From Reclinomonas americana ATCC 50394 (taxonomy: Eukaryota), in NCBI GenBank assembly GCA_048213135.1, contig PS015113.1, forward strand, positions 55,964 through 75,963: DNA of 20,000 nt, in the 5' to 3' direction. Made by a program: the position numbers and the translations under genes. The notes below the pieces were generated by a model that was given only the letters and a program-made list of their open reading frames with translations, was not told the origin of the DNA and did not search any database. Below are positions 432 through 20,000 of the stretch, piece by piece. Each line of letters starts with the position of its first letter. Position 1 is the stretch's first letter.

Positions 432-3400
432 CCGTCATGCAACTCTCCGCAGAAGCAGCGGCAGCAGCAGCGCCACTGTCGGTGGCTGATGCAAGCAGCG
501 CGCTCAGGTCGTCATCCTGTACACAGACAGGAAGAGTCAGTCATCGTTGCGAGACGTGGGTGGCACAGCACATGCTCCAACCGACCGAAATGTCTCGACC
601 GAGCACCTTGAACACGGCGCGCACGTCGTCACGCTGCAGCTTGCCACCGCATCCCACGGCCACGGTCGACACTGCATTGGCAATGCTCTGCGCCACCTCC
701 GGGTCGACCGAAGCCAGTGAGTTTGCGATCTGCAACGAGAGAGAGGAGTGAGATACGTAGAGGAGACTGTCCCTCTCGGTGCCACTCGACCAACCGTCGT
801 CTCAGCATGGCGCAAGCGATCGTGGCACAATTCGAGCAACGATCGATGCAACGTCAGCACGGCGCGGGCATTCTCCACAGCCAGCATGTCTTGCAAGTGG
901 TGTCGGGCATCGGTGCCGCTAAAGCTGTCGACGTACACTTGCAGTGCAGCCAGTGACCGTGTCAGATCGGGCGATTGCAGGTCGTGGATGCACAGCTGAA
1001 TCGTGTGCAGCAACAACTGCGGGAAAATGTCAAAGTGAGTGAGGGAGAGGCGCGCGACTTTCGTGTCTCGTGTCTCTCACCTCGACGTCGCCACCTATGG
1101 TCTGCAGCAGATTGGCGCGCACGGCGCGAATGCGACTCCTTGCGTGTGAGATGTGAATCTCTTGCTCCGTCTGCACCTCTTCGTCTGTGCACGACAATGG
1201 TGAGAAGCGAGACGGGGAGTGTACGACATCCATACCCACAAACCATCGTCATCGCTGTTGCCACGCATTCTCGCAATGCTGGCAATCGTGTCGTGCACCT
1301 GCCGATTCAGTTCGCCCGAGTCCCGCAGTGCTCCCTGCGCGAACGGTGGGTGATTGATAGGCACAATCAGTAGACTCTCGTTTGACTCGATCACCAACCT
1401 GCAGCTCGGCAACATGTGACTCTGATGATGCAGAGGATGACTCGGACGACTTGATGGCCTCGTTGAGGATCGCCACTTGCGCCAACACAACATCCTCCAG
1501 CAGAATCTGCAGCGGCTGCAGACGCTGGGAGTTGGCGGGTCGCGACGGATCCAGAATCGCCAGCTGATTGCGAATGTCCGAGATGCAGTGTGCCACCACG
1601 GCGCGCAAAATCCACTGGTCGTCGCCCGCACCCTTTTGCGCCGCAGCGAGAGCCGGTGACGCAAACTGGACAGGCACCAAAAGTACAAAGTTGAGTCACA
1701 AACACACAGAGTACGGGATCGAGAGTGCGATACATGCCTTTTCCAACTGGAGCAAAATCCGATTGCGTGCATCGACCAGCGCATCCGAAGCCCACTGTGT
1801 GAAGGCAATGTGAGCACAAACTACACGTTTCATACACGCAGTGGTGCGCCAATAACAAACCGATCGATCCATTTCGCACTCGGACTGCAAAAAATCGGGC
1901 AGCGCCGACCAGGCCGACTGGAAGCGGTGCCAGTGTGTGGCGAAATCCTGCGTCAACCGAATAACATCGACGGCGCTGGCCGGCTGCGTGGAACCAAACA
2001 GTTCGCGGCACCACTTCATCGTCTCGTCCGACACCTCGTCAAAGTCGTCGCGTGTGGTGGTCGTTCCTCGTCCGTGTCTCGCCTCGGCCGATCCGTTCGC
2101 ATGCCTGCGCGTTGTCGGCGAAGTATATGAGACACACTTTTGCACTTGACCACAGAAGCAATCTCCAAAAACACACGCACCCATTGTGCAAACTCTGCAC
2201 GGGCATGTGCTCCACTTGTTCCGCCAGCACCGCGAATTTCTCCTCCAGCACCGCCAAGTCAAGGTCTGCATCGGGCACAAAGACCGGCAACCCTCTCGAC
2301 GACCGATGATCATTGCCGTGCTGCAACAGCGACTGCATGCGCCACAGGCCGCTCACGGCCACTGGTCGACAATCGTGTGCAAATCGTCGCTGGAAGCTTC
2401 GAATCGCGGCAACATCGGCATCAGAGCCAGCACCACCATGTTGAGAGATTACCGCCCGGGACTCCTCACCCCACTGTTGCAAGAATGCTTGGAGCTGCAG
2501 TGCACATGAGACACATACGCGGAAGCACAGCTGGAGGCAAGAAAAAAGCAGCGCACCTTCTTGGCCACAGCCGTGTACGAGGGTGCAAGCTCAGTGGCTT
2601 CCACCAGCGTACGGAAATGGCGTGTGACCAGCTCGGCAGCACTGCGCTGTTGAGATGACAGGCCGTGTGCTGCGGGGGGTGGTTCAACGTACGAGTCGCG
2701 GACGGACTTCCGAAAATCCTTCATGGTGCGTTTGAGACCGACAACAAGATCGTGGCCTTGCAACTGTGTGCATATCATGCATGAGTCATGGTGGGGAGGG
2801 CACTCGTGACAAGAAGAAACGCGCACACACCAAGGCCTTGAGTCTTTCGATTTCGGCGAGTAACCGTCGGTTTTCCTCGCGCAATTCCTCAATCTCGGCC
2901 GACAGAGTGTCGTTGCCCGAGGCTGTCGACAGATGATGTCAGCACTATGCGTAATGCGCAACGAGCGACGCAGAAACTACGGACCTTGTGAGCGCAGGCG
3001 CGAGTTCTCGGTCTCGAGTTGAAGCACTTTGTTGGCGAGGTCTTCGAGTTGCTGCTTGCGCGATGCAGATTTCGCTTTCTTGCTCGCCTGCATCGCCTCC
3101 AGCTCTTTCTGTAGTCTCTCCACCAACTCCTGCGAGGCGATGTGCGTGAGAGGAATGCACATCATGTGGTGCCAGAGAGCTAAAGAGGGGAAAGGCTCCA
3201 CCTTCAACGGCAGCAGCTTTCGTTGGCTCTCCTCAAACTGGCCGCTGAGTGCAGCCAGCTGCTCCGTGTAGCGGGTGTTTTCGACACTGCACACAGACGT
3301 GATCAATGTCAGGTCAACGTCTCGGAACAAAAACAAGAGAGCTCCCGCCGAGACGCAACTGCAGTTCGTCCTTCTCCTTGCGCGTCTGCAGGAAGAAGAG

Positions 3401-5788
3401 AGAGTGAGGAGAGGAGACGACAGCAACAGAAGGCGAGCGGGGAGGATGCACGAACCGAGGTCAGCTGCTGCTGGAGAGACGTCACGGCGCCAACGAGCTC
3501 CGTCAATGCCGCTTCCTCGTCAGATGCGTGACCTGGCCTCGGACCGGCTCCTACTGCACTGCCGAGAGCCTCCAAGGCCGCCCGTTGTCGTTGCAGTGTG
3601 CCGCGTAGCGTGTCGCGCTCACTCGACACCTACGATGCACACGCAAATGTCAATTGAGAGAAGCAACACAATCGACAATATGAATGCAACACTCACCGCC
3701 GCCAATTGCGTCTCGGCTGCAGTCAATCGGGATCGCATCTGCACGTGTTTATGTGAGTCGACGGTGCGCAATGCAAACCTCGGTGAACATCCTCACCGCC
3801 TGCTGATCACCCGCAGAGCCGACTTGACGATCGCGCTCTGCCGACAACTCCCTCTCCAGAGCCGCAATGCGCTGATTCGCCTGCAGCAGACAACATGTCG
3901 GCAACAGCACACTCACACACACGTCTATCATAAACCACTACAAACCTCAGTCAAATGTGACGTGCAGTCAGAGCATGAACGCTTGGAGGACTCGAGTTCC
4001 TTTTGCAATCGCGCCACTTCCTCACCACCCTGCATGTCGATCAAGGATGAGTGTTGGTGCTTCACGCAGGACCTCGACGGAATGTGCAACAACTGACCTT
4101 GGAAACCTCGGCGTGCAACATGGAGGACGACTCAATTGCCTTTTGCAGCTGGCCCTCCACCTCCAGCAGCGTCGCGCTCGACACTGCCTCCTCGCGGAGC
4201 TGCGGCACACATACAGAGTATGTGAGCCAAGAGAAGGACACCTACGAGGAGACGGCAGCACGCGCGCACCTTGTCGAGCTCGACTTTCAGCTGCGAACAC
4301 TCGCCCTCCGACTCCAGCAATGCCTGCTGCAAATCACGAACGCGGGTCTCGGCCGAGTCGTTCTCTTCCGCGGAGCCCGCAGCGTTGTCACGCAGCTCGC
4401 TCAACTCCGCCTGCAACGACGCTCGCTCGGCCTGTCACCACTCCATCGCTCAGTATGCGAGAAGAAGGAGAAGAAGAAGAACACGGTTAAGTATGCGCAG
4501 CGCACCTGCAAGTCCACCACCTCCTTGGCCGCATCCTCCGCCTCTTGGCGTGCCTGCAGTGCAGCATCAGCCTCTTGCTCCAGTTGTTGCTTCCTGCAAC
4601 GAGGCGCGTGATTATGAGTGCGTGAAGGGAGAGACAGCAACTGATGATGTAAGTGCAGTGTGGCACGCAACAGCTCGGCCACCTCACGGCTACTGCGCTC
4701 GGCCTCGTAGGTCTTCTCGCCCGCCAATTTGCTGGCCTCGTCCAGCTTCTTCTGCACAGCATCGAGCTCCTGTCGCACCCGCTGCTCGGCCTGCCGGTGC
4801 GCGTCGACTTTTTGCGACAACTCGGCCTGTGTGCAGGAAGAGTGAGCAGCCGCCATTTCGGAAGGGAAATTGATCAATGATTCGTGCCGACGCAACAAGT
4901 CGACCATCGAATTCGGCCTTGAGTTCTTCTCGCACTCGCCGATCGGTCGCATCACGCTCCCTCTGCACAGCGGCGTCCACAGACGCGGTCGATGACACAG
5001 CCTGCACATCCAGCTGCGCTCGCAGGTCGGCCAGTTGCTTCTGCAACTCCTTGGTCTGCGACACCCATCGCATTGGTGAGTGCGACGCAGCACACAGACA
5101 ATCAACAGAGACTGACGCTCACCTGCGATGCTGCCTTTTGTTTCTCCTCTGTGAATGCCTCCTGCGTCCGTCGATGCGCTGCGTGCGACTCGTCGAGCTG
5201 TACTTGCAGCTCGGCGACCTTGGATTGCAGTGCAAACTCCTCCAATTGCGACGCCTCTGCCTGCTTCTTGTGATCGCGGCGCAAGTCGCGCAGCTCGCCC
5301 TGCGCGTCAGAAGTCAGCATATGGACCACTGCTGAAAGGTGGACATCTTGCGGAATCACCTGCAGTGCGTCGATTTCGGCGGACTTTTCCTGCAGGCGCG
5401 CACGCAGTTGTACCACGCGCTCATCCGCCGATGCCGATTGCTGCGCAACGGGCGTGTATAAGCGAGCAGGCTCGCTACTTGATCACCAAAACACACGCAC
5501 GCACCGCCTTTTCCGTCTCAGCGAGGCGCGCACGCAGGTCAATCACTTCGCGGCGCGTCACGTCCAACTCGCCGTGGAAGTTCTCGTAGTAACGAATCTT
5601 TTGCTCCAGCTCGTCGTTCAGCTTACCAAAGCGACGCCACTTGTCCTCCGCATCGGCGCGCCCTGCCACAGCCTCGTTCAACTGCCGGTCGTGTGCGTCT
5701 TGCTTGGTGCGATGCTTGTTCAGGTCGCGCATGTAGCGGTTCAGGCGGTCTTGCAGGGAGCTGTGAGGAGGGGAAAGGGAGTGAGGGA

Positions 5789-5843
<55 letters not shown>

Positions 5844-7850
5844 GAGGAGGAGAGAGAGAGACGNNNNNNNNNNNNNNNNNNNNNNNNNNNNNNNNNNNNN
5901 NNNNNNNNNNNNNNNNNNNNNNNNNNNNNNNNNNNNNNNNNNNNNNNNNNNNNNNNNNNNNNNNNNNNNNNNNNNNNNNNNNNNNNNNNNNNNNNNNNNN
6001 NNNNNNNNNNNNNNNNNNNCGACTGCGTTGAGCTACGAACGCAAGAGAGAGTGGGGCGTGCACAAAGGCGCACCTCATCCACCGGATACAGATCCAGCAC
6101 CGACTCCACAGTCTCGATCTTGCTGGCGGTGCGTGGCGATCGCATCGGCGAGGTGCGACGTGGGCTAGCCGCCGCACTTTCGCCAGCAGCTGCCCCGGCC
6201 GCCGCCGAGGAACTGCTGCCGCTCGACGACAGCAACGCGCGTGGTGACATCATCTTTGGCTGCTCGTAGCGCAATCCCGAGTGCAGCTTGCCGCGCACAC
6301 TCGAAATCACTGCCGAGGCGGCCGAAACGTCCTTCAGCCGATCGCGCGGAGACATGCCAGCCGGTCGCGGCTGCGACAACTCCAGCGTGCGTGGCGAGGC
6401 GGCCACAGTCGACAGACCAGCGGTGCGTGCTGCGCGCTTGGCGCGCTCCTCCGGTGTCCTGCCTGGTTTCGGCGCCTTGCTGGCCAAGAACGCAGCCGTG
6501 GTGCGCTCGGTGACCGACACATGCGGCTGATTGCCCCACATTGACTTCTTCTTGCGACCCGACACTGGGGCGGCGGTGGGCGACGATGCCTCGGATGGTG
6601 GCGCACTGGAGGACGGATCCGACGAGGCTGGCTCGCTGTCCGAGTCCACAGCACGCCTCGTGCGCGACAGATCCACTGCGACATGTAAGAGAGAAGGCCA
6701 ACGAACGAGAGGAACAGACTGCGGGGAGGCGACGCAACAAGTGGGAACGACTGGCGCGGCACGGGCCGGTACCGCCGTCACCTCGGGGGATGTTTTGCGC
6801 ACGGTGGGCACGGGCAGCCGCGATCGCGGTGATCCCATGCCCGCAGGAGCGGCAGGCGACGCCTGAGGAGCAGACGTCGGCTTGCGAGCTGGCGACGGCT
6901 TCACCGGCTTGGCCAGCGACGACGGTGGTGGACTGCCCATGGACGACAGTGCCAGCGCCGGCACGAACGACGGTGCAGACACTGGTGCCGAAGGCGCCCC
7001 GGAACTCACCGACGATCCATCATCGAGAATGCCATCATCGTCCAGGGCGTGCGAGTGGCGCTCCGATGCTGCTCGACAAGCAGGGGAAGAGAATGAGCAA
7101 CGACGAAAGCAGAGCTGCGCGTGCGCGACCAGCAACGCACATCCATGTGACATATCGCCCGACGCAGAGCGCTGATGCTGTTGAATCGCTGCACGACGAC
7201 GATCATCATCAGCAATCGCCTTCCCCCGTTCTGACAAGCACAAGCACACCCACACACCTCGCGCAAAATCCGCAACCACATCGCTCTCCGCATCCTCCGC
7301 AGCCGCCGTGACAGACATCGCAGGCGCACGAGGCGACGAGTCTGCCCATGCACAGAGAGAGAGACAGAGAGAGTGAGACAATGAACTGTTGTTTGAGCAC
7401 ATGCAACATGCACGCAACTCGTCTTGGGCACTGGCGGAGGCAACGGTGGAGGCGAGCGTGGAGAGAACTTGGGGACCGGAAGCCTTTACACAAGAGCAGA
7501 GTGAGCACGCACTCACACACAGACAGAGAGACACACACAGTGAGTGAGAGACCTCGATCCCGGCGATCTCAAATACGATGCCGATGCAGGCGACGATTTC
7601 GGTTGATTCACCAGCGCATGCAGCTCCGATGCAACTTGACGAACCTTTTGCAGCACACACACACACACATAAGACAGTGTGTGAGAGAGAGAGACAGAGG
7701 CAACACAGTGGGTGGAGTAAACGAAACTGCGTCGTCTTGTGACGAAGTTCGCCTGTGTGCGCGTGTGCAGAGTGAGCAATATGAGTGTGTGAGCGAGTGT
7801 GTGTGCGCGCGTAACTGCGGTTGTCGACCGCCGCTGTCTTGCTCAGCCAT
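432..7850 (-). CDS. Large multi-exon protein (more than 30 introns): Ser/Pro-rich disordered N-terminus, long coiled coil, helical C-terminal region ending in a degenerate EF-hand/calmodulin-like segment; 3' end lies in the gap
   Basis: Putative ATG at 7850 (MAEQDSGG). Exons join in one frame through GT(GC)-AG introns, e.g. 7342-7418, 6676-6738, 4827-4896, 4594-4671, 3287-3359, 1666-1737, 730-794, 517-585. The coiled coil spans about 5760-2830 (ELEQKIRYYENF, LQLETENSRLRS, IEELREENRRLLAEIERLK). The last exons read GGKLQRDDVRAVFKVLGRDIS|DDDLSALLA. Continuity across the gap 5864-6019 is assumed, and the first exons are less certain. Confidence 0.75.
5791..5862. repeat. (GA)n microsatellite, intronic, next to an assembly gap
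   Basis: Directly visible. Confidence 0.95.
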
Positions 7851-8067
7851 CTCTCCTTCAGTGAGAGAGAGAGAGAGCGGACCTGTCATGACCATCACAC
7901 GCGCGCACACACAGACGCACACACACGCATGCACAGGTGAGTAGACACGATGAGAGAGAGAGGACAGTGTGCATGTGGATGCACGCTCACCACAGCACAG
8001 CACGCGTACTTTGATAGAGGACAGTGGCTCACACTGTCACTCTCTGTCACACACACTTGCAAAGAGA

Positions 8068-9370
8068 ATGAGGACGCGCTTCTTGCCTGGTCTGCTGCTC
8101 GGTGTCTCAGTGATGGCCACATTAACTGTGGTGTTGCTCATGCCAAGAGAAGTTGAGTGAAAGAAGAGAGAGACAAGAGAGAGAGCGAGAGGCAAGAGGG
8201 AGAGAGAGAGAGAGACACACACACACACACACACATGCCCGCACAGAGAGAGAGGGAGGTAGAGAGATAGCTGTACCTCTCATACGCTTGTGAGGCTGCT
8301 CATTCCAAGAGCGTGAAGAGAGAGACAAGAGAGATACACACGCACGCACACTCTCTCTCTCTCACACACACACACATACCTGTGCCTCACACTCACTTGT
8401 GATGCTGCTCATTGCAAGAGAGACGCACTTGCACTCACCTTCTCTGATTCTCTCTCTCTTTGTGTGTGTGTAGACTTCTGGTTCTGCGCTGTGTTTGTGT
8501 GAGTGTTGTCGCGTGGAGGACTGCACTGTGGCGGTGAATGGGACGATTCCAGTGGATTCGTGCTCGGCCTGCTCCGTGTCCATGTGCAAGAGTCATGTGG
8601 TATGCAATGAGGATCGCAAGGCGCGCTGCATTGATCGAAACAATTGGTGAGGCGGAGAGGGGAAGAGAGGGGCGAGAGGGAGAAGGGAGGAAGCAGTTGT
8701 CGCTCCATTTCGTTCTTGTCCTCATTGTGTTGGTCTTTCGCGCTCTCTTTGTTGTGTGCTGCTGCTGGTTCTGCCTCGCGCTGCAGCATGTCATCTCGTT
8801 CTTCACACTCTTCTGTGTGTGCTGCTGTTGATCTTTGCTGGCTGTCTGCTCTATCTTCTGACTACTGCTTCTCGTTCCCTGTCTTATGCGTGCTTCTGGC
8901 TGTTTTCGCCCGTCTGCAGCGTGTGCTGGTCGTGGCCTCTCGTTCTTCACACTCTTCTGTGTGTGCTGCTGTTGGTGATTCTGCAATCTGTTTGCACGTC
9001 GTCTCCTTCCCTTCTACATCGTCGTCTGCGATCTTCCCTACTCTTCCTTCGTGCTCCATCTCATCCACTTCGTCGGCATGCTGCCCCTTGATTCGTCTTG
9101 TTCTCCTCGTCTGTGTCGGTCTTCACTCGCGATCCACTGCTGATTGACTGACTCCATTTTGCCTATCTCTCTCTCTCCATCGCAGGTGGTACCAGGTTTG
9201 TGTCATTGTCCACCCCTCCCTCCCATCCCTCTTGCTTTCTGTCGCACTCACCCCGGCACTGGCAGTTCGTGACCTACTCCTTCTTCGTCTCACTCGCCAC
9301 GCTACTGGTGGTCTCGGCGCTCAGCACCACACGGCTGCGCGAGAAACTCAAGTTGCCGCGTCATGCATGA
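8068..9370 (+). CDS. Small (123 aa) Cys-rich single-pass membrane protein with N-terminal signal peptide/anchor
   Basis: Exons 8068-8151, 8474-8646, 9186-9195 and 9266-9370 join in frame: MRTRFLPGLLLGVSVMATLTVVLLMPRE|TSGSALCLCECCRVEDCTVAVNGTIPVDSCSACSVSMCKSHVVCNEDRKARCIDRNNW|WYQ|FVTYSFFVSLATLLVVSALSTTRLREKLKLPRHA*. It has 10 Cys, an NGT sequon, a TM helix and a basic tail. Confidence 0.8.
8794..8974. repeat. Direct repeat of about 37 bp (2 copies) inside the 539-nt intron of the Cys-rich gene
   Basis: tctcgttcttcacactcttctgtgtgtgctgctgttg occurs at about 8794 and about 8938. Confidence 0.85.
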
Positions 9371-9390
9371 GAAGAGCCGCACGAACGCCT

Positions 9391-12300
9391 TCACTTACTG
9401 ACGCCACCACCGCTGCTGCTGCTGTCGTACTTTGTAAACTTGTTGACAATGTCTTCCACCACGGTGCTGATGAGTTGGGCGTCTTCGCCGTCCGTTGGCT
9501 TCTGGCCGTGACCGGCGGCCGCCACACGTCGTGCACGGTCCAAAATGTGTGAGGCGGCAGTGGAGATGGCAGCGAGACGCTCGTTGGTCGGCGCCGTGGC
9601 ACCCCACTGCACGTACTGATCGAGTGACCACTCCAGAGCCTCCATGGGGGTGGCATAGCTGTGGAGTGTGTGAGCGGCAGCGTAGAGATCGCACGCACGT
9701 GCAAGCACACGCAACATTTCGCGAGGAACACGTGACAGCAGGTGCTGACACACGGTGACTGGATGCAACAAGTTCTTGCTGACCAGCTGTGAGACGCAGA
9801 AAACGTAAGTCAGCATCGAGTCCTGCCACCTTTCGGCCGTCACTTAACGCACCTCGGGCATCTCCAATACGGCGCTCGTGTCGGTGAACAAGAGACCCTT
9901 GAGTGCTTTCAGCTCGACGTACTGCGGCCCGAGGGCCTTTGCACTGGCCAGCGTGCTCAACGACAGCTCACACTCGGACAGGTCGGCCGCCATCTGCAGC
10001 TTGATGTCCTCCCGACACGACGGTGCCGTGCTGAGCAGGCAAACAAAGTGTCGCAGCAGGTTTTGCGCCACGTACGCCAACGTGTCCTTGTATGCAGGCG
10101 AATTGCTGGCGACACAGTGAGCACGCAGCAAAGGATTCACAACACCCTGTGTGACCGTCACGTACCGATCGTACTCGGCCAAGTAGGCGTCGTGGAACAC
10201 AGTCACCTTCAGGCTAAAATCGTGCATGTAGCGCGAGCCCGACTCGCCCATGGTCACACCACTGCGTCGACACACGGTGAGAGTGAGTTGGAAGGCTCTT
10301 CCCGATACACACAACGCACCCCATATCCGAGCCGCTGTGCATGCGATTGAGCACGCGCGTCAGGGACTCCTCGGCGCGCTGCACAAGCGGCAACAGAATG
10401 CGCCGCTGCACTTTGGCGATTGGCGAGATGAGCCTGCTCACGTCCACATTGCTGCGGGCGCACGCGGCGTGCGTCTGCAGCGTCTTCACCAGTGCATCGC
10501 TGAATGCACCGAGCACGTTGAAGAGGTTGGCATTCTGACGCTGCGCCTGTGTCGGTTGCGCCACCACGGCCGCAGCAGCCGTGTTGCCGCCCTCCTCGGC
10601 CAGTGCATCCAACAGCATGCGTGTCGCATCGGGGCTGGTCACGATGCGCTCCTCTGCACGCACCAAAAAGTGATGCACAACGCGCGGCAGACCGGCCAGG
10701 TACGGTTCCACTAGCGACGGGCTCTCACGATGCACCGTGTCCAACTCGTGCTCCACCACCGTCAGCAGCGTTTGCACGTCGACAGAGAGTGGTATCTGCA
10801 CGGCGAGGTTGGCGGTGACTGCTGGACACGATCGACAGGCTGACACGCAACTCCTTGTGCAAATGTGGCGTCCACTTTGCTGCACAGATCCGTGACGCAC
10901 GTGTCAAAGTATCTGTGATCGTAGTTCACCAACAGGCGCCTCGTCCAGTCCGGTCCATCCACTGCCGCTCCCGAACTGTGAGACGAGGGGGAAGATGAGT
11001 GTGAGGGCACGGGGGGTGATTCACAGTGGTCCTCAAAAGAACGCACCTGCCGATTCCGCCACCGCTGCCACCACCACTGCTGTGGTCTGTTGTCGACGTG
11101 GTGCGCTCCGATAGCCGCGACTGCTCCACAAACTCATTGTGCAGCGACTCGACCACACGGTGGAGGGTGGGGTAGTGCGTCGACAGGGCACTGGACATGG
11201 GGTCATCTGCATCGAGAAGATGAGCTGCGTGTGTGAGCAAGCATCACGAGACTACACTGCGACTTGCCTTTCTGAGCAGCTGCGACGGCTCGTTGAATGG
11301 CTGACTCTACGACACGACGGAAGCGTCCAGTCATGGTCTCACCGGCGGCCTGAATCACAAGGTCAGTCAGCACAGTCATCCTTGATGGTATGCAGACGCA
11401 GACACACATGTCACACGCACATCGCCCTGCAGCACGGCCGCCAGAAACTGCGTGTGCGTGTCCGGATCGCGCTTCTTCTCGAGCACGCGTTCCAGCTGCA
11501 CCACGTGATAGAAAATCTCTCGCAGCGACTTGAACGCCTTCTCGATGCCAATCAGGAGGAATGTGAAGGCCGAGGAGAGGGTTCGGCCTTGCAGTTTGCC
11601 TGAGAGACGTGTGAGAGACAAGAAGAGCACAGTGCTCGTTGCATCGTTCCACAAACCAGTCGATGAGAACGCCACATCCAACAGACTCTGCACCGCCACC
11701 GTCTTCTGGTGGCACACATCACCGACCATGGTCTTCAACGCCGACAAGTTGAAAGCCACCTGCAACGCCGAGCCGACCTCGGACAGATTCTGCACCACGT
11801 GTCAGCCCTCGCAAAACTCCCTCACCGACGCCCGCTCGTCGTCCAACGCAACAGACACAGTGAGGGCGGCCTCCAGTGAATGCCGCGCGCGTTGCAGACA
11901 CGCCACTCGCACCGACTCCAACCACGGCTTCTCCACGACCACCACACGCACCCCATCCATGCTGACAACTCCCGCACCATCCACCGCCGCCATCGCATCC
12001 TCATCGGTGCCGGCCACCAAACTATCAATCTCCGCCAACACACGCGCCGCACGCGACACATCCTCCAGATCCGACTGCGAANNNNNNNNNNNNNNNNNNN
12101 NNNNNNNNNNNNNNNNNNNNNNNNNNNNNNNNNNNNNNNNNNNNNNNNNNNNNNNNNNNNNNNNNNNNNNNNNNNNNNNNNNNNNNNNNNNNNNNNNNNN
12201 NNNNNNNNNNNNNNNNNNNNNNNNNNNNNNNNNNNNNNNNNNNNNNNNNNNNNNNNNNNNNNNNNNNNNNNNNNNNNNNNNNNNNNNNNNNNNNNNNNNN

Positions 12301-12654
12301 NNNNNNNNNNNNNNNNNNNNNNNNNNNNNNNNNNNNNNNNNNNNNNNNNNNNNNNNNNNNNNNNNNNNNNNNNNNNNNNNNNNNNNNNNNNNNNNNNNNN
12401 NNNNNNNNNNNNNNNNNNNNNNNNNNNNNNNNNNNNNNNNNNNNNNNNNNNNNNNNNNNNNNNNNNNNNNNNNNNNNNNNNNNNNNNNNNNNNNNNNNNN
12501 NNNNNNNNNNNNNNNNNNNNNNNNNNNNNNNNNNNNNNNNNNNNNNNNNNNNNNNNNNNNNNNNNNNNNNNNNNNNNNNNNNNNNTGTGTGGAACGAAAG
12601 ACAAGAGTAGAGGCGAGGTGTGTGTGCGAGGGTAAGGACGAAGGGTAGGAGGCG

Positions 12655-12701
<47 letters not shown>

Positions 12702-12916
12702 CGTGAATGCGTGAATGCATGCATCTCTCTCTCTCTGTTTGCACACATACCTCTGTGCGTAATCTTCTCTCCAACACTTGCTCACTGGCACGCAGTCTGC
12801 GCAGCTCATCGTCACACCGCGAGGAGCTCAGCGTGCGTCGCACAAAGTCCGTGTGAGAGAACGAGTCGCGCGCAAACTGGCGCACATACTCTGCACAAAA
12901 CGACCTCGTGTGAGCG

Positions 12917-12958
<42 letters not shown>

Positions 12959-12999
12959 AAGAGCACACCATCGTCTTCGTCTCTTCTCTCTGCAGTCAT
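9391..12999 (-). CDS. COG5: Conserved oligomeric Golgi complex subunit 5 (multi-exon, interrupted by gap 12082-12585)
   Basis: ATG at 12999, first exons 12969-12999 and 12751-12890. Recognisable COG5 motifs: NLSEVGSALQVAFNL, LERVLEKKRDPDTHTQFL, HYPTLHR, SRYMHDF, TPMEALEWSLDQYVQW. Introns include 11790-11852, 11225-11267 (GC-AG), 10796-10851 and 9659-9715. Stop TGA at 9391-9393. Confidence 0.9.
12657..12700. repeat. (GT)n microsatellite in a COG5 intron
   Basis: Directly visible. Confidence 0.95.
12921..12956. repeat. (GA)n microsatellite in COG5 intron 1
   Basis: Directly visible. Confidence 0.95.
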
Positions 13000-13059
13000 C
13001 GCGTGTGTGTGTGTGGAGAACGAAATTGCACTCTCTGTGTCTCTCTCTCTTTGTTGCTC
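13000..13059. promoter_or_regulatory. Putative bidirectional promoter/5' UTR region between COG5 and the cupin gene
   Basis: Only 60 bp separate the two divergent ATGs. Function is inferred from gene geometry alone. Confidence 0.5.
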
Positions 13060-13365
13060 ATGAAGCTCAGGCAGCTCAGTGAGCTGCCCGACGAAGGTGT
13101 CTCTCACAATGAGGCAATCCGCAAGCGCACTATGCTGCGATACAATGAAGTCGCAGGCATCACAGTTGCTTGTCACACACAGAGTCTCTCACTTGTGCCC
13201 TCTCTCTCACTCTCTGTGTGTGTGCGTTAGAACTTTGCGCGATCGACCTTCCCGCCTCTGGCAGTGGCCTGTGCGCACTCGCATGCTGACATGACAGAGT
13301 GCTTTGTGGTTGAGCGGGGAAGTGGCGAGATGCTGGTTGATGGAGTGGCGCATGCACTGAGTGCT
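13060..13365 (+). CDS. Cupin-domain protein (Cupin_2-like, bacterial/cyanobacterial-type family); 3' end lost in gap
   Basis: Exons 13060-13164 and 13231-13365 give MKLRQLSELPDEGVSHNEAIRKRTMLRYNEVAGIT|NFARSTFPPLAVACAHSHADMTECFVVERGSGEMLVDGVAHALSA. This contains cupin motif 1 (HxHxxxxExxxVxxGxG). The N-terminal VSHNxxIxKxxML is recalled from small cyanobacterial cupins. The next donor is at 13366. Confidence 0.85.
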
Positions 13366-13530
13366 GTTGAGTAAGGGGAAGAGAGAGNNNNNNNNNNNNN
13401 NNNNNNNAGAGAGAGAGAGAGAGAGAACGAGGGGGGAGAGATCAAGGAAAAAGGGAGAGCGAAGACAACGCAAGTGAGAGAGAGAGAGAGAAAGAACATG
13501 AAACCCCCATCCCTGAATCGATCACGCAAC

Positions 13531-14623
13531 ATGCAAACAGAATCCACGGTTGTACCACGGGCACTCTGGCCGGCGATCCTGCTTGCCCACATGCCGAAAC
13601 GTGCAATCGGCGTTGTTGCACTTGGTGTACTCCATGTAGAACTGACACGGCGGCATGCGGTTCAGATCGTACTCGTGCAGGTACTCGCACTCATCACCCT
13701 AACGACGCACGAGGGTGAGTGAGTAACAAAGAGAGCAAGGGAGAGAGAGGGGAGAGAAAGCTGACCTTCTTGCACAGTCCGCGCAACCAATGCTTGCACA
13801 CAACTCGTCGAATGAGAGACACCAGCCTGCGAGAGAAGAATGTGTGAGTGAAACGAAGAAAGCGAGAGAGTATGAGAGTGAGAGAGAGAGAAGGGAGAGT
13901 GAGAGACAGGCAGAGATTGCGAGAGAGAGTATGAGAGTGCAAGAAACAAGACGCTCAAGAGGAGAGAGCGACAGAGAGAGAGAGAGAGAGTAAGAGAGTG
14001 AGAGAGAGAGAAAGAGAGACAAAGAGAGAAAGAGAGAGATAATGAGACAAAGAAGAGAGACAAAGTGAGAGAAAGAGAAAGAAAGAGCGCTGTGAGAGTA
14101 AGAGAGACAGAGAGAGAGAGAGAGAATGCAAGAGAGAGTGAAAGAGAGCGATAATGAGACAAAGAAAGAGAGAGAGAGAGAGAGCAACAGAGAGAGCAAG
14201 AGAGAGAGAGCAAGAGAGCGTCAGAGATGCAAGTCAAATTTGGACTCTCTCTCTCTCACTCTCCCCCTGTTGCACACACATGCACACACGAGTTCCACAA
14301 TGCATGTGCACACGTGTGCTTGCATGTGTGTGTGCATTGTGAAAAGAGACACAAGAGAGAATGCGCGCGCAAAGTCATCACCCTTTCTCCCTCACTCCTC
14401 CCTCTCTCTTTCCCCTTCTTCCACTACTCAACTTGGTGTGCTTCATCGGGCACTTCTCCGCCCTCTGACAGTACCCGCGCAGGTAGTACGGGCACACTCC
14501 AATCATCGCCGCCTCGTTGCCTCCTCGCCGTGACGAACCCTCCACCATGGTCGTCGCCGCATCCTCATTCTCCAGAAAGCGCTCAAACGCAAACGCAAGA
14601 ACCCGCTCTCGCTCGTACTCCAT
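13531..14623 (-). CDS. CPSF4: Cleavage and polyadenylation specificity factor 30 kDa subunit (CPSF30/YTH1), CCCH zinc fingers; 3' part missing (gap)
   Basis: Exons 14433-14623, 13766-13826 and 13531-13698 give ...VCPYYLRGYCQRAEKCPMKHTK|LVSLIRRVVCKHWLRGLCKK|GDECEYLHEYDLNRMPPCQFYMEYTKCNNADCTFRH...ECPWYNRGFCLH. VCKHWLRGLCKKGDxCExLHEYD is the diagnostic CPSF30 ZF2 sequence. Confidence 0.95.
13830..14260. repeat. Degenerate GA-rich low-complexity tract expanding CPSF30 intron 1 to 606 nt
   Basis: Nearly pure A/G on the + strand, with internal repeats such as gagagtatgagagtg and gataatgagacaaagaa. Confidence 0.9.
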
Positions 14624-15783: not shown

Positions 15784-16239
15784 GGTACAGGGTTCCTTGT
15801 CTTGCGCGAATCACGATCCAATTCATCGCAATGTCTCGCTCACACGCTCACTGCAGCTGTGACCCTTTTCACAACACTGCTGGTTCTACGACGAATGAAC
15901 GGGAAAGGATACGATCAGTGAGAGACTTTCCATCAATGTCTCTTCTCATGCTGCTCTGGCCATATGCTCCATCGTCTGCATAACGCCTGCAAGCGTGTGC
16001 AACAGAAAGACCACGGGAACACAACAACCAAAAAACGCCCACCAACAAACCTGGCCCCTCAAACTCGCGCACAACGTTGCATGACATTTCTGAACATCAG
16101 TCAACACCACACAGCACACGCACAGCAGAAAGTCAGCATTTTTCTTCCGCGAATCAAACAGCAGAACTTGAAGGGTCTCTCTCTTCCTCTCTCTCTCTCT
16201 CTCCCTCTCTCTCTCACACACACTCACACCACGCTACTG

Positions 16240-19200
16240 CTACTGGAACAAACCTATCGCTCGCGAAACCGTCAGCGTCCGCGTCACCGTCAGACTCGGC
16301 AAGTTCGTATTCGTGGCAGAAACCGTCACACTCAGCCACCGACCAGTCCGCCCAGCCGCAGTGATGCGCAGTTGGTTGCCTCCAGAAATGTTGAACCAGG
16401 CACCGTGTGGTCCGCCCACTATCGAAAACGTGTACGACTGGCCAGTGACCACGGGCGACGGCACGCTGAGCGTGCCTACCACAACCTGAGCAACTGATGG
16501 TGACGTATATGTTCCCGGAGTCAGGTTGATAAATACTGGTGCGGGTGGCATAACCACGGTCACAAGCACGGTGCCTGTGGCACTCAGAACACCACCTGTG
16601 CCCTGTGCTCCGCCAGAGTTGCCATCGCTGAAGGTCCACCGCATCAGCGCCGTCGACGCAGGTGCAGCACTGGGGTTTGTGTACGCAATCTGTTGCATCG
16701 CTGCATTCACAAGCGCGTTTGTCGCGCTGGCATCGAATGTGAGCACAAGCGTGCCGCCACTGTTGGTCGTGACTGTACCAATGACCGTGCCGCCAACGGT
16801 ACACGTGCCGCCCTCAGTTAGCGCTCCAAGAGTGCCCATGCCGGAAATCACGTCCTGCACACTGGCGCCACCATCACGCGCCACCGTGAATGTCGCACCG
16901 GAAAAGTTGTTGAGAAGGCTCAGTTCGGCGTCGGAGATTGTCATGCTGCTGACGAGCGCAATGCTGCTGCCGCCTGAATAGTACGTGGCAGAAGTGCTGA
17001 CCGAGGCGGCGACCGGCGCGTCGTTGATGCTGGTCACCGTCAGCGAGGCAGTCTGGGTCGCTGTACTGAAGGCCGTCAGCCCACCGTTCGAGCTCGTGTC
17101 TGCCTGCGCCCCTGCTGCACCTCCGTCAGTCTGGTCCCAGGCACGGAAAGTCACCCCCGCTGCGCCACCAATGACAGTGTCTGGCAAGAACCGAACCCTG
17201 TCAGTGTCTCGCAACAACAGCGCCGCCGTGTTGCTCAGGACGCCAGGCATGTTGCTCCATGAGCTGCCGTTGTCCAGCGAAAACTGCCATACGCCACTGC
17301 CTGCGACACTGACACCCGTCACGGCAACGCCCTTTGCCGACGCGCGCGACGCATCGGGATCCGTCACGCGTCCGCTGATGACAGCCGACACCAAGTCGCC
17401 CGAGTTGCTCGTCTGATCCTCGGTGATGGCACTCAGTGCGTTTGCTCCAGTCAGTGCCGGAGCGGTGTTCGCGCTTGCGGTAATGGACCACATTTTGGAG
17501 GTGATCAACCAGCTGCGGGCGGTANNNNNNNNNNNNNNNNNNNNNNNNNNNNNNNNNNNNNNNNNNNNNNNNNNNNNNNNNNNNNNNNNNNNNNNNNNNN
17601 NNNNNNNNNNNNNNNNNNNNNNNNNNNNNNNNNNNNNNNNNNNNNNNNNNNNNNNNNNNNNNNNNNNNNNNNNNNNNNNNNNNNNNNNNNNNNNNNNNNN
17701 NNNNNNNNNNNNNNNNNNNNNNNNNNNNNNNNNNNNNNNNNNNNNNNNNNNNNNNNNNNNNNNNNNNNNNNNNNNNNNNNNNNNNNNNNNNNNNNNNNNN
17801 NNNNNNNNNNNNNNNNNNNNNNNNNNNNNNNNNNNNNNNNNNNNNNNNNNNNNNNNNNNNNNNNNNNNNNNNNNNNNNNNNNNNNNNNNNNNNNNNNNNN
17901 NNNNNNNNNNNNNNNNNNNNNNNNNNNNNNNNNNNNNNNNNNNNNNNNNNNNNNNNNNNNNNNNNNNNNNNNNNNNNNNNNNNNNNNNNNNNNNNNNNNN
18001 NNNNNNNNNNNNNNNNNNNNNNNNNNNNNNNNNNNNNNNNNNNNNNNNTCCACCAATGTTCTGGTTGAATGCCGTCGCTCCCTGAAACATGTTCGACATG
18101 TTGGTGACAACAGCAGTGTTCCACCCGCCAATGCTCTGGTTGAACGCCGTCGCCCCCTGGAACATACTCGACATGTTGGTGACGGCAGTAGTGTTCCACA
18201 CGCCAATGTTCTGATTGAACGCTGTCGCTCCCTGAAACATGTTTGACATGTTAATGACGGCAGCAGTGTTCCACCCGCTGATATCACCATTGAAAACTGT
18301 CGCTCCATAAAACATGTACGACATGTTGGTGACGGCAGCGGTGTTCCATCCGCTAATGTTCCGGTTGAATGCCGTCGCCCCCTGAAACATGTTCGACATG
18401 TTGGTGACGGCAGCAGTGTTCCACCCGCCGATATCACCATTGAAAACTGTCGCTCCACTAAACATGAATGACATGCTGGTGACAGCGGCAGTGTTCCACG
18501 CGCTGATATCACCATTGAAAACTGTTGCTCCATTAAACATGAATGCCATGTTGGTGACGGCAGCAGTGTTCCACCCGCCAATGTTCTGATTGAACGCCGT
18601 CGCCAAACGAAACATACTCCACATGTTGGTGACGGCAGCGGTGTTCCACCCGCCAATGTTCTGGTTGAACGCCGCCGCCCCATAGAACATGCTCGACATA
18701 TCGGTAACGGCAACAGTGTTCCATCCGCTAATGTTCTGATTGAAGGCCGTCGCCTGGTAGAACATGCTCGACATATTGGTGACGGCAGCAGTGTTCCATC
18801 CGCCAATGTTCTGGTTGAAGGCCGTTGCCCCCTGGAACATGCTCGACATGTTGGTGACGGCAGCGGTGTTCCACCCGCCAATGTTCTGATTGAATGCCGT
18901 CGCCCCCTGGAACATACTCGACATGTTGGTGACGGCAGCAGCGCTCCACCCGCTGATGTCACCATTGAACGCCGTCGCCCCACGGAACATGGTCGACATG
19001 GTGGTGACGGCAGCAGTGTTCCACCCGCTAATGTTCTGGTTGAACGCCGTCGTCCCGTAGAACATGCTCGACATGTTGGTGACGGCAGCAGTGTTCCACC
19101 CGCCAATGTTCTGGTTGAACGCCGTCGACTGGAACATGCTCGACATGATGGTCACCGTCGAAACGTCCCAGTTCCAGTTAGCTCCCGCGCCCGTCAACGC

Positions 19201-19949
19201 AGTGCAGCCCGAAAACGTGCTAGTTAGGCTGTTGGCGTTGGCTAGGTACGGTGTGTCGGTGGCGGTGACCTGTAAATTGGCGCAACCGGCGAATGCGCTG
19301 ACAAGGTCGGTGAACGCCACATTGCCCCACTGACTGATGGTGCTCAGCTTCAGCCGATCACCACTGTTGTTGAACTTGAGACCCGCAAACTTGCCCACAA
19401 TCGTCACAGTGTAGGTGCCACTGGCGGCGTACGTCTTCGTCACCGTACCGGTGGCCACTTGCGAGCTTCCATCGCCCCAAAACACTCTGAAACTGTTGGT
19501 CGCGCCGCCAGCCACTGGCAGCTGCAACTGGTTGCTGGCAGTCCCCGCTTTGGTGGTGTCGAAAACCAAGACGTGGCCAACGGTGCGCGCAGTTGTTTCG
19601 TCAGACGCCACCGTCAGTGTCACCGAGGCAGTGGCCGTGTTGATGCCGTCAGTAACACGATAGTCAAAGCTCCGCACACCGGCAGCTGGCACCGACACAT
19701 TCAGCCGCTTGTCGCTGCGTCGCGTGACAACGCTGCCGTCAGCCAGAGTTGCCGTGCTGCCTGCGCTTGGCAGATTGAAGACCGTGCCCCCGAATGCCGT
19801 GTCGATCACTGCCGTGACCACCAGGCCCACCCCGGTGTCGTTGGCAAGCACGTTGACCACCATCGGCACACCCGCGATAATAGTCGCCGCATCCGCCACC
19901 GCGAGCACCGCGCGCACAGTGACGGGGCGAGTACTCGAAGATGATGTCT
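16240..19949 (-). CDS. Giant exon encoding a BspA-type/DUF285 repeat surface protein with Ig/cadherin-like and PKD-like domains (bacterial adhesin architecture); 5' part lies outside the window
   Basis: Acceptor CCCTGTTGCAG ends at 19950. Domain order: Ig/cadherin-like (VNVLAND...FDYRVTDG); PKD-like (VFWGDGS...YAASGTYTVTI); ISQWG cap; at least 15 repeats of WNTAAVTNMSSMFxGATAFNQNIGG; gap 17525-18048; cadherin-like repeats (NTAPAL..ITED, WQFSLDNG, FRAWDQT, INDAPV). Ends either at the stop at 16240 or at a donor at 16253. Confidence 0.9.
18049..19170 (-). repeat. Coding tandem repeat, 75-bp (25-aa) unit, 15 visible copies, continuing into the gap
   Basis: The unit TGGAACACTGCTGCCGTCACCAACATGTCG...TTCAACCAGAACATTGGCGGG recurs every 75 nt. 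The first unit is 24 aa. Confidence 0.95.
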
Positions 19950-20000
19950 CTGCAACAGGGAATGAAACAACGACAATCCATGAGGATAAAGCAGAAGAAG

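Follow-up and report, generated by a model that had tools for sequence, protein, structure and literature searches.

A candidate class of one-base-shifted 5' splice sites after exons that do not end in G, in a 20-kb window of Reclinomonas americana

Departures from the canonical U1 register are uncommon among human 5' splice sites. Validated non-canonical registers account for 3,119 of 201,541 sites (1.5%), and the registers with a bulge at +2/+3 and at +3 comprise 68 and 51 predicted sites of the same 201,541 (Tan et al., 2016, PMC4856993, Table 3). The human registers comparable to the one discussed here range from about 0.03 to 1.5% of sites (PMC4856993), and the shifted register is credited in that paper to Roca and Krainer (2009). 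Here we describe a 20,000-nt stretch of Reclinomonas americana ATCC 50394 (assembly GCA_048213135.1, contig PS015113.1, positions 55,964 to 75,963 of the forward strand; hereafter the window), in which 13 to 15 of 53 predicted donors, most of them GTTGCGT or GTTGAGT, carry an extra T at +3 and follow an exon that ends in A or T. The original prediction, made from the letters of this stretch, had called such sites very rare in mammals, and the human figures bear it out, lying far below the proportion found here.

The human shifted-register sites resemble the present class in their displaced consensus after the GU and in U at +3. In the human sites, G+1 lies opposite C9 of U1, U+2 is mismatched with C8 and the cut stays at the GU despite U1 being bound one step off, an arrangement proposed for the sites here as well. 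The human sites differ in being rare individual sites, exemplified by a long A/U-rich match of the CAGUCAAGUAU type (PMC4856993), whereas in this window the class accounts for 13-15 of 53 donors and strictly follows a non-G -1 base; its core is GC-rich (UGCGU), and weak pairing with standard U1 is predicted for it. The bulge +2/+3 and +3 registers (Roca et al., 2012, cited in PMC4856993) likewise place an extra U beside the GU and move the downstream consensus by one base; the sections of PMC4856993 at hand describe no dependence on the -1 base, whereas G at -1, written G(-1) below, is excluded here. A further parallel is the division of donors into AG//GU and //GURAG classes (PMC9803359, PMC11732430, PMC11842720), for which a two-class model involving U5 and U6 (eLife 2022, PMC9803359) and LUC7-dependent classes (Nat Commun 2025, PMC11842720) have been described. 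As described there, the two classes share with ours a trade-off between exon and intron strength, non-G(-1) sites having the tighter intron consensus, but they keep a single register, whereas the intron consensus here is displaced by one nucleotide. A literature search on these heptamers and on shifted or bulged registers outside mammals, with subscription journals mostly outside its coverage, found no lineage with a common shifted class.

Genes in the window were re-spliced by hand and checked by script. Every intron runs from GT to AG, apart from one GC-AG intron, and all seven gene segments modeled give open reading frames (ORFs); the PAN-domain gene and the first 450 bases were left out of the donor set. 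The donors are predictions, and candidate GTs were chosen with the motif already known. Of the 53 donors in the curated models, 36 follow a G at -1 and the other 17 an A or T. No shifted donor is found among the 36. Thirteen of the 17 have T+3, G+6 and T+7 (nine GTTGCGT, three GTTGAGT and one GTTTCGT), and 12 of these 13 strict sites read GUUG[C/A]GU. Two more are looser (GTTACGC at 7815 and GTTGCTT at 13165), and the remaining two keep the ordinary register as T/GTGCGT (7140 and 11420; here and below a slash marks the cut). The shifted share is about a quarter, 13 donors under the strict and 15 under the loose definition, and its association with a non-G -1 base is strong (Fisher exact p = 2.8e-9 over the 53 donors). 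The class occurs in six genes, on both strands. Within the window, the class looks real, and its link to a non-G -1 base is far beyond chance. The earlier hand-splicing had come to nearly the same figures (about 54 donors, 37 with G and 17 without, 15 shifted, two exceptions, and no shifted site after G), and all the heptamer positions that it listed were reproduced; it had placed the class in five genes on both strands, of which the strands hold and the gene count becomes six.

A few sites with other possible readings bear on these counts. A/GTCCGT at 2707 could begin an in-frame intron and was treated as exon; its codon usage is coding-like (15th percentile of exon windows). Near 1776/1707, a 111-nt intron from G/GTCGAT (1776) and a 42-nt intron from T/GTGTGT (1707) are both possible. 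T/GTGCGT at 16123 lies outside the curated genes. Were the three doubtful non-G sites (2707, 1707 and 16123) all real, the exceptions would rise from 2 of 17 to 5 of 20.

The distribution of the heptamers is itself uneven. GTTGCGT occurs nine times, always on the minus strand (ending at 3359, 4671, 4896, 6738, 7418, 9715, 10851, 11852 and 13530). Dinucleotide shuffles give an expectation of 4.45 over both strands and reach at least nine copies in 9 of 200 cases; the Poisson probability of at least nine copies on one strand is 5e-4. GTTGAGT occurs four times (8152+, 13366+, 14432- and 1690+), a raw count no higher than chance, as 87 of 200 shuffles reach four; three copies are on the sense strand within genes, and the copy at 1690+ is antisense to a gene. 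Neither heptamer is ever preceded by G, and GGTTG[AC]GT has no copy on either strand of the window. Sense-strand H/GTT[GA][CA]GT (H, any base except G) is found 13 times, at 12 donors, nowhere in exons and once inside an intron; the corresponding ordinary hexamer, H/GT[GA][CA]GT, is found at two donors, at eight places in exons and at seven in introns. This census agrees with the earlier statement that every GTTGCGT lies at a predicted donor, in that it finds no exonic copy of H/GTT[GA][CA]GT.

Aligning the 53 donors in a common U1 register, with the true +1 of each shifted site placed at register -1, brings the two classes together. Register -1 is G in 51 donors, +2 is U in 52 and +5 is G in 48, while register +1 is G in 38 and U in 15. 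The core is tighter in the shifted sites: 13 of the 15 have G at register +3, as against 21 of the 38 canonical donors, and all 15 have C or A at register +4. The extra base is always T. At the true -1 position, eight of the 15 shifted sites have A, seven have T and none has G or C, a composition that resembles the -2 column of canonical donors (22 A, 8 C, 6 T and 2 G among 38) more than their -1 column (36 G).

Several lines of evidence suggest that the shifted sites act as donors. Most of them (3359, 4896, 7418, 7727, 8152, 10851, 11852, 13165 and 14432) need an intron, because read-through would run into a stop or the length of the intron would shift the frame, and nearly none of the in-frame alternative donors listed for these introns has G at +5. 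A COG5 profile made from plant and algal members of the family (45 of the 120 listed) gives 121.1 bits to the gene model with its three GTTGCGT junctions and 103.4-117.0 bits to eight alternatives at these places. At 11852, the competing donors score 117.0 (11858), 109.4 (11912) and 104.9 bits (11951, a perfect G/GTGCGT); at 10851, three alternatives score 111.4-111.5; and at 9715, retention scores 112.9 and the alternative donors 103.4-103.6. A second metagenome scan yielded six CPSF30 loci with 48-62% identity for use as protein comparisons, a first scan for close relatives having found none, and the spliced protein aligns with these CPSF30 relatives across the 14432 junction with a 3-residue gap. 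The stop-free introns that follow GTTGCGT at 4671, 6738 and 9715 have codon scores below 99-100% of exon windows, consistent with non-coding usage. Intron lengths and 3' ends of the shifted class match those of the other introns. On this predictive evidence, the shifted sites most likely begin genuine GT-AG introns.

The best explanation of the pattern, to which we give a probability of about 50%, is that U1 binds these donors in a shifted register; we infer both the register and the genome-wide extent of the class. The donor signal would be an ordinary G/GUGCGU or G/GUGAGU moved one base intronward to H/GUUGCGU or H/GUUGAGU, so that in the U1 frame both classes would form a single motif, G-[G or U]-U-G-[C/A]-G-U, with a nearly obligatory G opposite C9 of U1. 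Where the exon supplies this G, the cut would fall directly after it. Where the exon lacks it, G+1 of the intron would face C9 instead, U+2 would be mismatched with C8 and the remaining consensus would pair one step along. The spliceosome would then cleave at the sole available GU, one base upstream of the U1 register. The tighter core of the shifted sites is expected if it compensates for the mismatch at register +1, and the near-constancy of G on either side of the cut suggests that this base is needed when U1 binds rather than during catalysis. More tentatively, and with the odds somewhat against it, the pattern might reflect a dual-register 5' splice-site code that depends on the coding sequence, in which about a quarter of all introns supply the C9-facing G themselves. 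Standard U1 would bind the shifted sites poorly, so such a code would call for a changed U1 small nuclear ribonucleoprotein (snRNP), for instance one with a different 5' end on its U1, a second U1 or modified contacts of U1C/Luc7, and for a transfer to U6 in which one additional nucleotide is accommodated.

The standard U1 small nuclear RNA (snRNA) begins with ACUUACCUG at its 5' end, and the standard U6 box is ACAGAGA. An Rfam scan of the window gave no match at gathering thresholds. Predicted pairing with U1 is among the points that weigh against U1 binding in the shifted register. Duplexes were folded in ViennaRNA against a human-type U1 11-mer, the standard 5' end as given by Tan et al. 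(2016, PMC4856993). In these nearest-neighbor energies, which ignore snRNP proteins, G(-1) donors average -6.75 kcal/mol with G+1 on C8 in every case, and shifted sites average a weak -1.8 kcal/mol. G+1 is unpaired in seven of the 15 shifted sites and pairs with C9 in six, with C4 in two and with C8 in none; the choice of C9 over C8 speaks for the shifted register. In-silico deletion of T+3 strengthens pairing in 13 of the 15, leaves two equal and weakens none, so simple U1 thermodynamics fails to explain the preference for the extra T. The source of that preference would be snRNP proteins that give the G:C9 pair great weight, a divergent U1 or some other component that recognizes these sites. 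The earlier proposal that G+1 stands in for a missing G-1 fits the register alignment (51 of 53) and is not favored by the standard-U1 energies.

Other points on the same side concern sequence composition and gene models. The -1 column of the shifted sites is enriched in T relative to the canonical -2 column (p = 0.03), and the T at the true -1 position in seven of 15 shifted sites is unable to pair with U10 of U1. The introns at 4671, 6738, 7815 and 9715 are in frame and free of stops. A pairwise alignment to a single relative (P0004) prefers retention of the 9715 intron, 337 to 325. A donor-blind dynamic-programming gene finder recovered three of the nine GTTGCGT donors; it is too noisy to serve as a standard and about as poor on ordinary donors. 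All junctions are predicted, and the sample is one 20-kb window, on which the earlier terms "pervasive" and "lineage-specific" also rest. Given donor scores, a version of the gene finder favored the shifted donors, but its design leaves it more freedom. Acceptors 45-120 nt downstream have a median best score of 6.7 for donors and 3.4 for controls (90th percentile 10.4); with introns this closely packed, the score failed to tell donors from exonic GTs.

Among the less likely explanations, a bulged-U or asymmetric-loop register would pair G+1 with C8 and U+2 with A7, loop out U+2 or U+3 and let G+4 to U+7 pair as +3 to +6. In human sites, a register bulged at +3 (or +2) has been established (Tan et al., 2016, PMC4856993), and the intron side of the shifted sites fits it. 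Positions +3 and +4 are loosely constrained here (GTTTGT, GTTCGT, GTTGGT, GTCCGT and GTACGT are all used as donors), so the helix may contain a central internal loop with room for one more base. On the exon side, a bulge leaves unexplained why G at -1 is missing from all 15 shifted sites while register -1 is G in 51 of 53 donors. A bulge also predicts G/GUUGCGU as the best site, whereas G/GTTG[AC]GT has no copy in the window, and it sits poorly with an inserted base that is invariably T rather than any base and with folds that never put G+1 on C8 at shifted sites. We give a rather small chance to a lineage-specific component dedicated to the second class, either a U1 or U6 variant whose sequence complements GUUGCGU or an altered contact of U1C, Luc7, Prp8 or U5. 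Partly separate machinery would then recognize the two classes. Pairing of standard U1 with the shifted sites is predicted to be poor and to improve if the T is removed, yet 13-15 of the 17 non-G sites have this T, which hints at a preference for it beyond ordinary U1 pairing. Different factors are known to serve different groups of 5' splice sites, as with U5/U6 (PMC9803359) and LUC7 (PMC11842720). One motif read in one register gives a simpler account of why G(-1) and the extra T never occur together.

The class might also be an artefact of modeling, in which some or most heptamers belong to coding sequence (TTG CGT, for instance, encodes Leu-Arg) or flank the real donor, and the association arises from choices made during hand-splicing. 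Both TTG and CGT are frequently used codons in this stretch, four introns keep the frame and lack stops, as noted above, and the donor-blind gene finder, the downstream-acceptor test and the P0004 alignment can all be read this way. It is nonetheless improbable: GTTGCGT falls nine to zero in favor of the gene-bearing strand, stops or frame changes demand an intron at most sites, the COG5 profile backs its three sites, the stop-free segments have non-coding codon usage, and no G precedes any of the 13 occurrences of [ACT]GTTG[AC]GT. Four other readings were rejected. U12-type introns begin with [AG]TATCCTT and have a TCCTTAAC-like branch site near the 3' end; the donors here are GTTGCGT or GTTGAGT instead, and the 3' regions are like those of other introns, with CTCAC/CTGAC-like motifs and then CAG. 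Introns copied by an introner or transposon-derived family would resemble one another. Mean pairwise similarity is -0.17 within the shifted class, -0.15 within the canonical class and -0.16 between classes, with no outliers; shifted introns are no more alike than other pairs and so are not mobile-element copies. A GC donor three nucleotides downstream (GTT/GCGT) would read T/GCGTNN rather than AG/GCAAGT, and would be GA at the three GTTGAGT sites. Moving both borders by one base (TT...AGN) gives no consistent 3' end, as G follows the acceptor in 5 of 13.

U1 binding in the shifted register would matter beyond this locus. If about a quarter of introns genome-wide used a shifted or bulged register under a non-G -1 rule, a mammalian rarity would have become common, providing a natural system for the uncoupling of U1 binding from cleavage-site choice and showing how coding constraints shape splice signals. 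Gene finders with a single donor matrix would then misplace or miss about a quarter of introns in the genome. Interest in the class is high provided that RNA data and a genome-wide count agree with it.

Table 1. Genes in the window and predicted donors with A or T at -1. Exon bases are in lower case.
Feature	Position	Strand	Remarks
Coiled-coil gene, long	454-5760	minus	
S/P-rich gene	6074-7850	minus	Low-complexity
Small signal-peptide/membrane protein gene	8068-9368	plus	
COG5 gene	9390-12999	minus	Pfam
Cupin-like gene	from 13060	plus	
CPSF30-like CCCH zinc-finger gene	13531-14623	minus	Pfam
PAN-domain gene			Pfam
DUF285 repeat ORF, large	16243-19998	minus	Pfam
gca/GTTGCGT	3353..3359	minus	Coiled-coil gene; 73-nt intron; read-through stop after 43 nt; acceptor has no other in-frame GT donor; chosen by donor-blind gene finder
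gct/GTTGCGT	4665..4671	minus	78-nt intron, in frame, stop-free; codon score -0.25, under 99% of exon windows; chosen by donor-blind gene finder
ctt/GTTGCGT	4890..4896	minus	70-nt intron; frame-changing length; sole alternative with G at +5 is cga/GTGCGAGA at 4935, likewise non-G at -1
ctt/GTTGCGT	6732..6738	minus	S/P-rich gene; 63-nt intron, in frame, stop-free; codon score -0.66, under all exon windows
cga/GTTGCGT	7412..7418	minus	77-nt intron; codon score -0.74; keeps a single ORF open from ATG at 7850 to 6074; frames weakly constrained in this low-complexity S/P-rich gene
aat/GTTGCGT	9709..9715	minus	COG5; 57-nt intron, in frame, stop-free; codon score at 1st percentile of exon windows
gga/GTTGCGT	10845..10851	minus	COG5; 56-nt intron; frame change; chosen by donor-blind gene finder
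tct/GTTGCGT	11846..11852	minus	COG5; 63-nt intron; read-through stop after 48 nt
cat/GTTGCGT	13524..13530	minus	CPSF30-like gene; intron enters N gap 13388-13407, acceptor outside assembly; frame closes two codons on (GTT GCG TGA) within zinc finger 4, where relatives continue ...GFCKHG
gaa/GTTGAGT	8152..8158	plus	Small secreted/membrane protein gene; 322-nt intron; read-through stop after 6 nt; in-frame GTs upstream lack G at +5; ORF open from ATG 8068 to stop
gct/GTTGAGT	13366..13372	plus	Cupin-like gene; TAA two codons on; intron enters N gap, acceptor outside assembly
caa/GTTGAGT	14426..14432	minus	CPSF30-like gene; 606-nt (CT)n-rich intron; read-through stop after 52 nt
aca/GTTGCTT, looser	13165..13171	plus	Cupin-like gene; 66-nt intron; lacks G at +6; intron necessary because of in-frame TAG at acceptor
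gca/GTTACGC, looser, uncertain	7809..7815	minus	63-nt intron, in frame, stop-free; codon score -0.56
gca/GTTTCGT, shifted-type, uncertain	7721..7727	minus	83-nt intron; weak AAAAG acceptor; required for open frame in its gene model
gat/GTGCGT, exception, ordinary register	7135..7140	minus	T at -1; 72-nt in-frame intron; codon score -0.40
gat/GTGCGT, exception, ordinary register	11415..11420	minus	COG5; T at -1; three read-through stops

The window is eukaryotic and dense with genes (Table 1), and its G+C content is about 57% outside five N gaps. Introns are many and short, 56-83 nt for most, and mostly terminate in CAG preceded by CTCAC/CTGAC-like motifs. The gene models include one of 1,195 residues with 25 introns and one of 427 residues that begins at an ATG. 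Among the ordinary-register donors (n = 38), +3 is T in eight (GTTTGT, GTTCGT and GTTGGT) and C in six; between 585 and 12968, a purine is not required at this position, and G at -1 is unusually constant (36 of 38). Perfect ordinary donors (G/GTGCGT or G/GTGAGT) also lie within exons at 11951, 10663 and 7009 on the minus strand, apparently unused. The donor motif alone is insufficient, since these perfect sites seem to go unused and use of 11951 lowers the COG5 profile score, and recognition probably requires the whole short intron.

Word-index protein searches with two COG5 pieces found no match, and an exhaustive protein search gave four matches, of which P0001 alone is close. P0001 has 108 aa, is 70% identical to the COG5 product and is encoded on a 1,692-bp ENA contig. 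It fits three further COG5 junctions (11206-11660, minus) at near-expected spacing, including the T/GTGCGT exception at 11420, whose junction it crosses at the expected spacing to within about one residue. P0001 runs unbroken through three COG5 intron positions; either its source lacks those introns, or the contig derives from spliced RNA. The GC-AG intron also belongs to COG5 (11206-11267, minus, 61 nt) and has a classic strong donor, AAG/GCAAGT. The GT-only alternative to this donor is a poor T/GTAGTC 12 nt downstream. The COG5 profile cannot separate the GC from the GT version at 11267 (121.1 and 121.3 bits), and the length of P0001 agrees with the GC version.

Microsatellites of the (CT)n/(GA)n and (CA)n types fill the few long introns in the window (322-606 nt), which lie at 13827-14432 (minus), 8152-8473 (plus) and 8647-9185 (plus); two of the three begin with GTTGAGT. 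The convergent cupin-like (plus) and CPSF30-like (minus) genes each end at a donor and enter a shared 20-N gap (13388-13407), their 3' portions being absent from the assembly (window 13366-13530). The DUF285/BspA-like ORF extends over more than 3.7 kb and is intronless apart from an N gap, and its neighbors carry an intron every 170 nt or so. Its closest ESM Atlas clusters are all bacterial DUF285 clusters, and it may represent a recent gene transfer or an assembly chimera.

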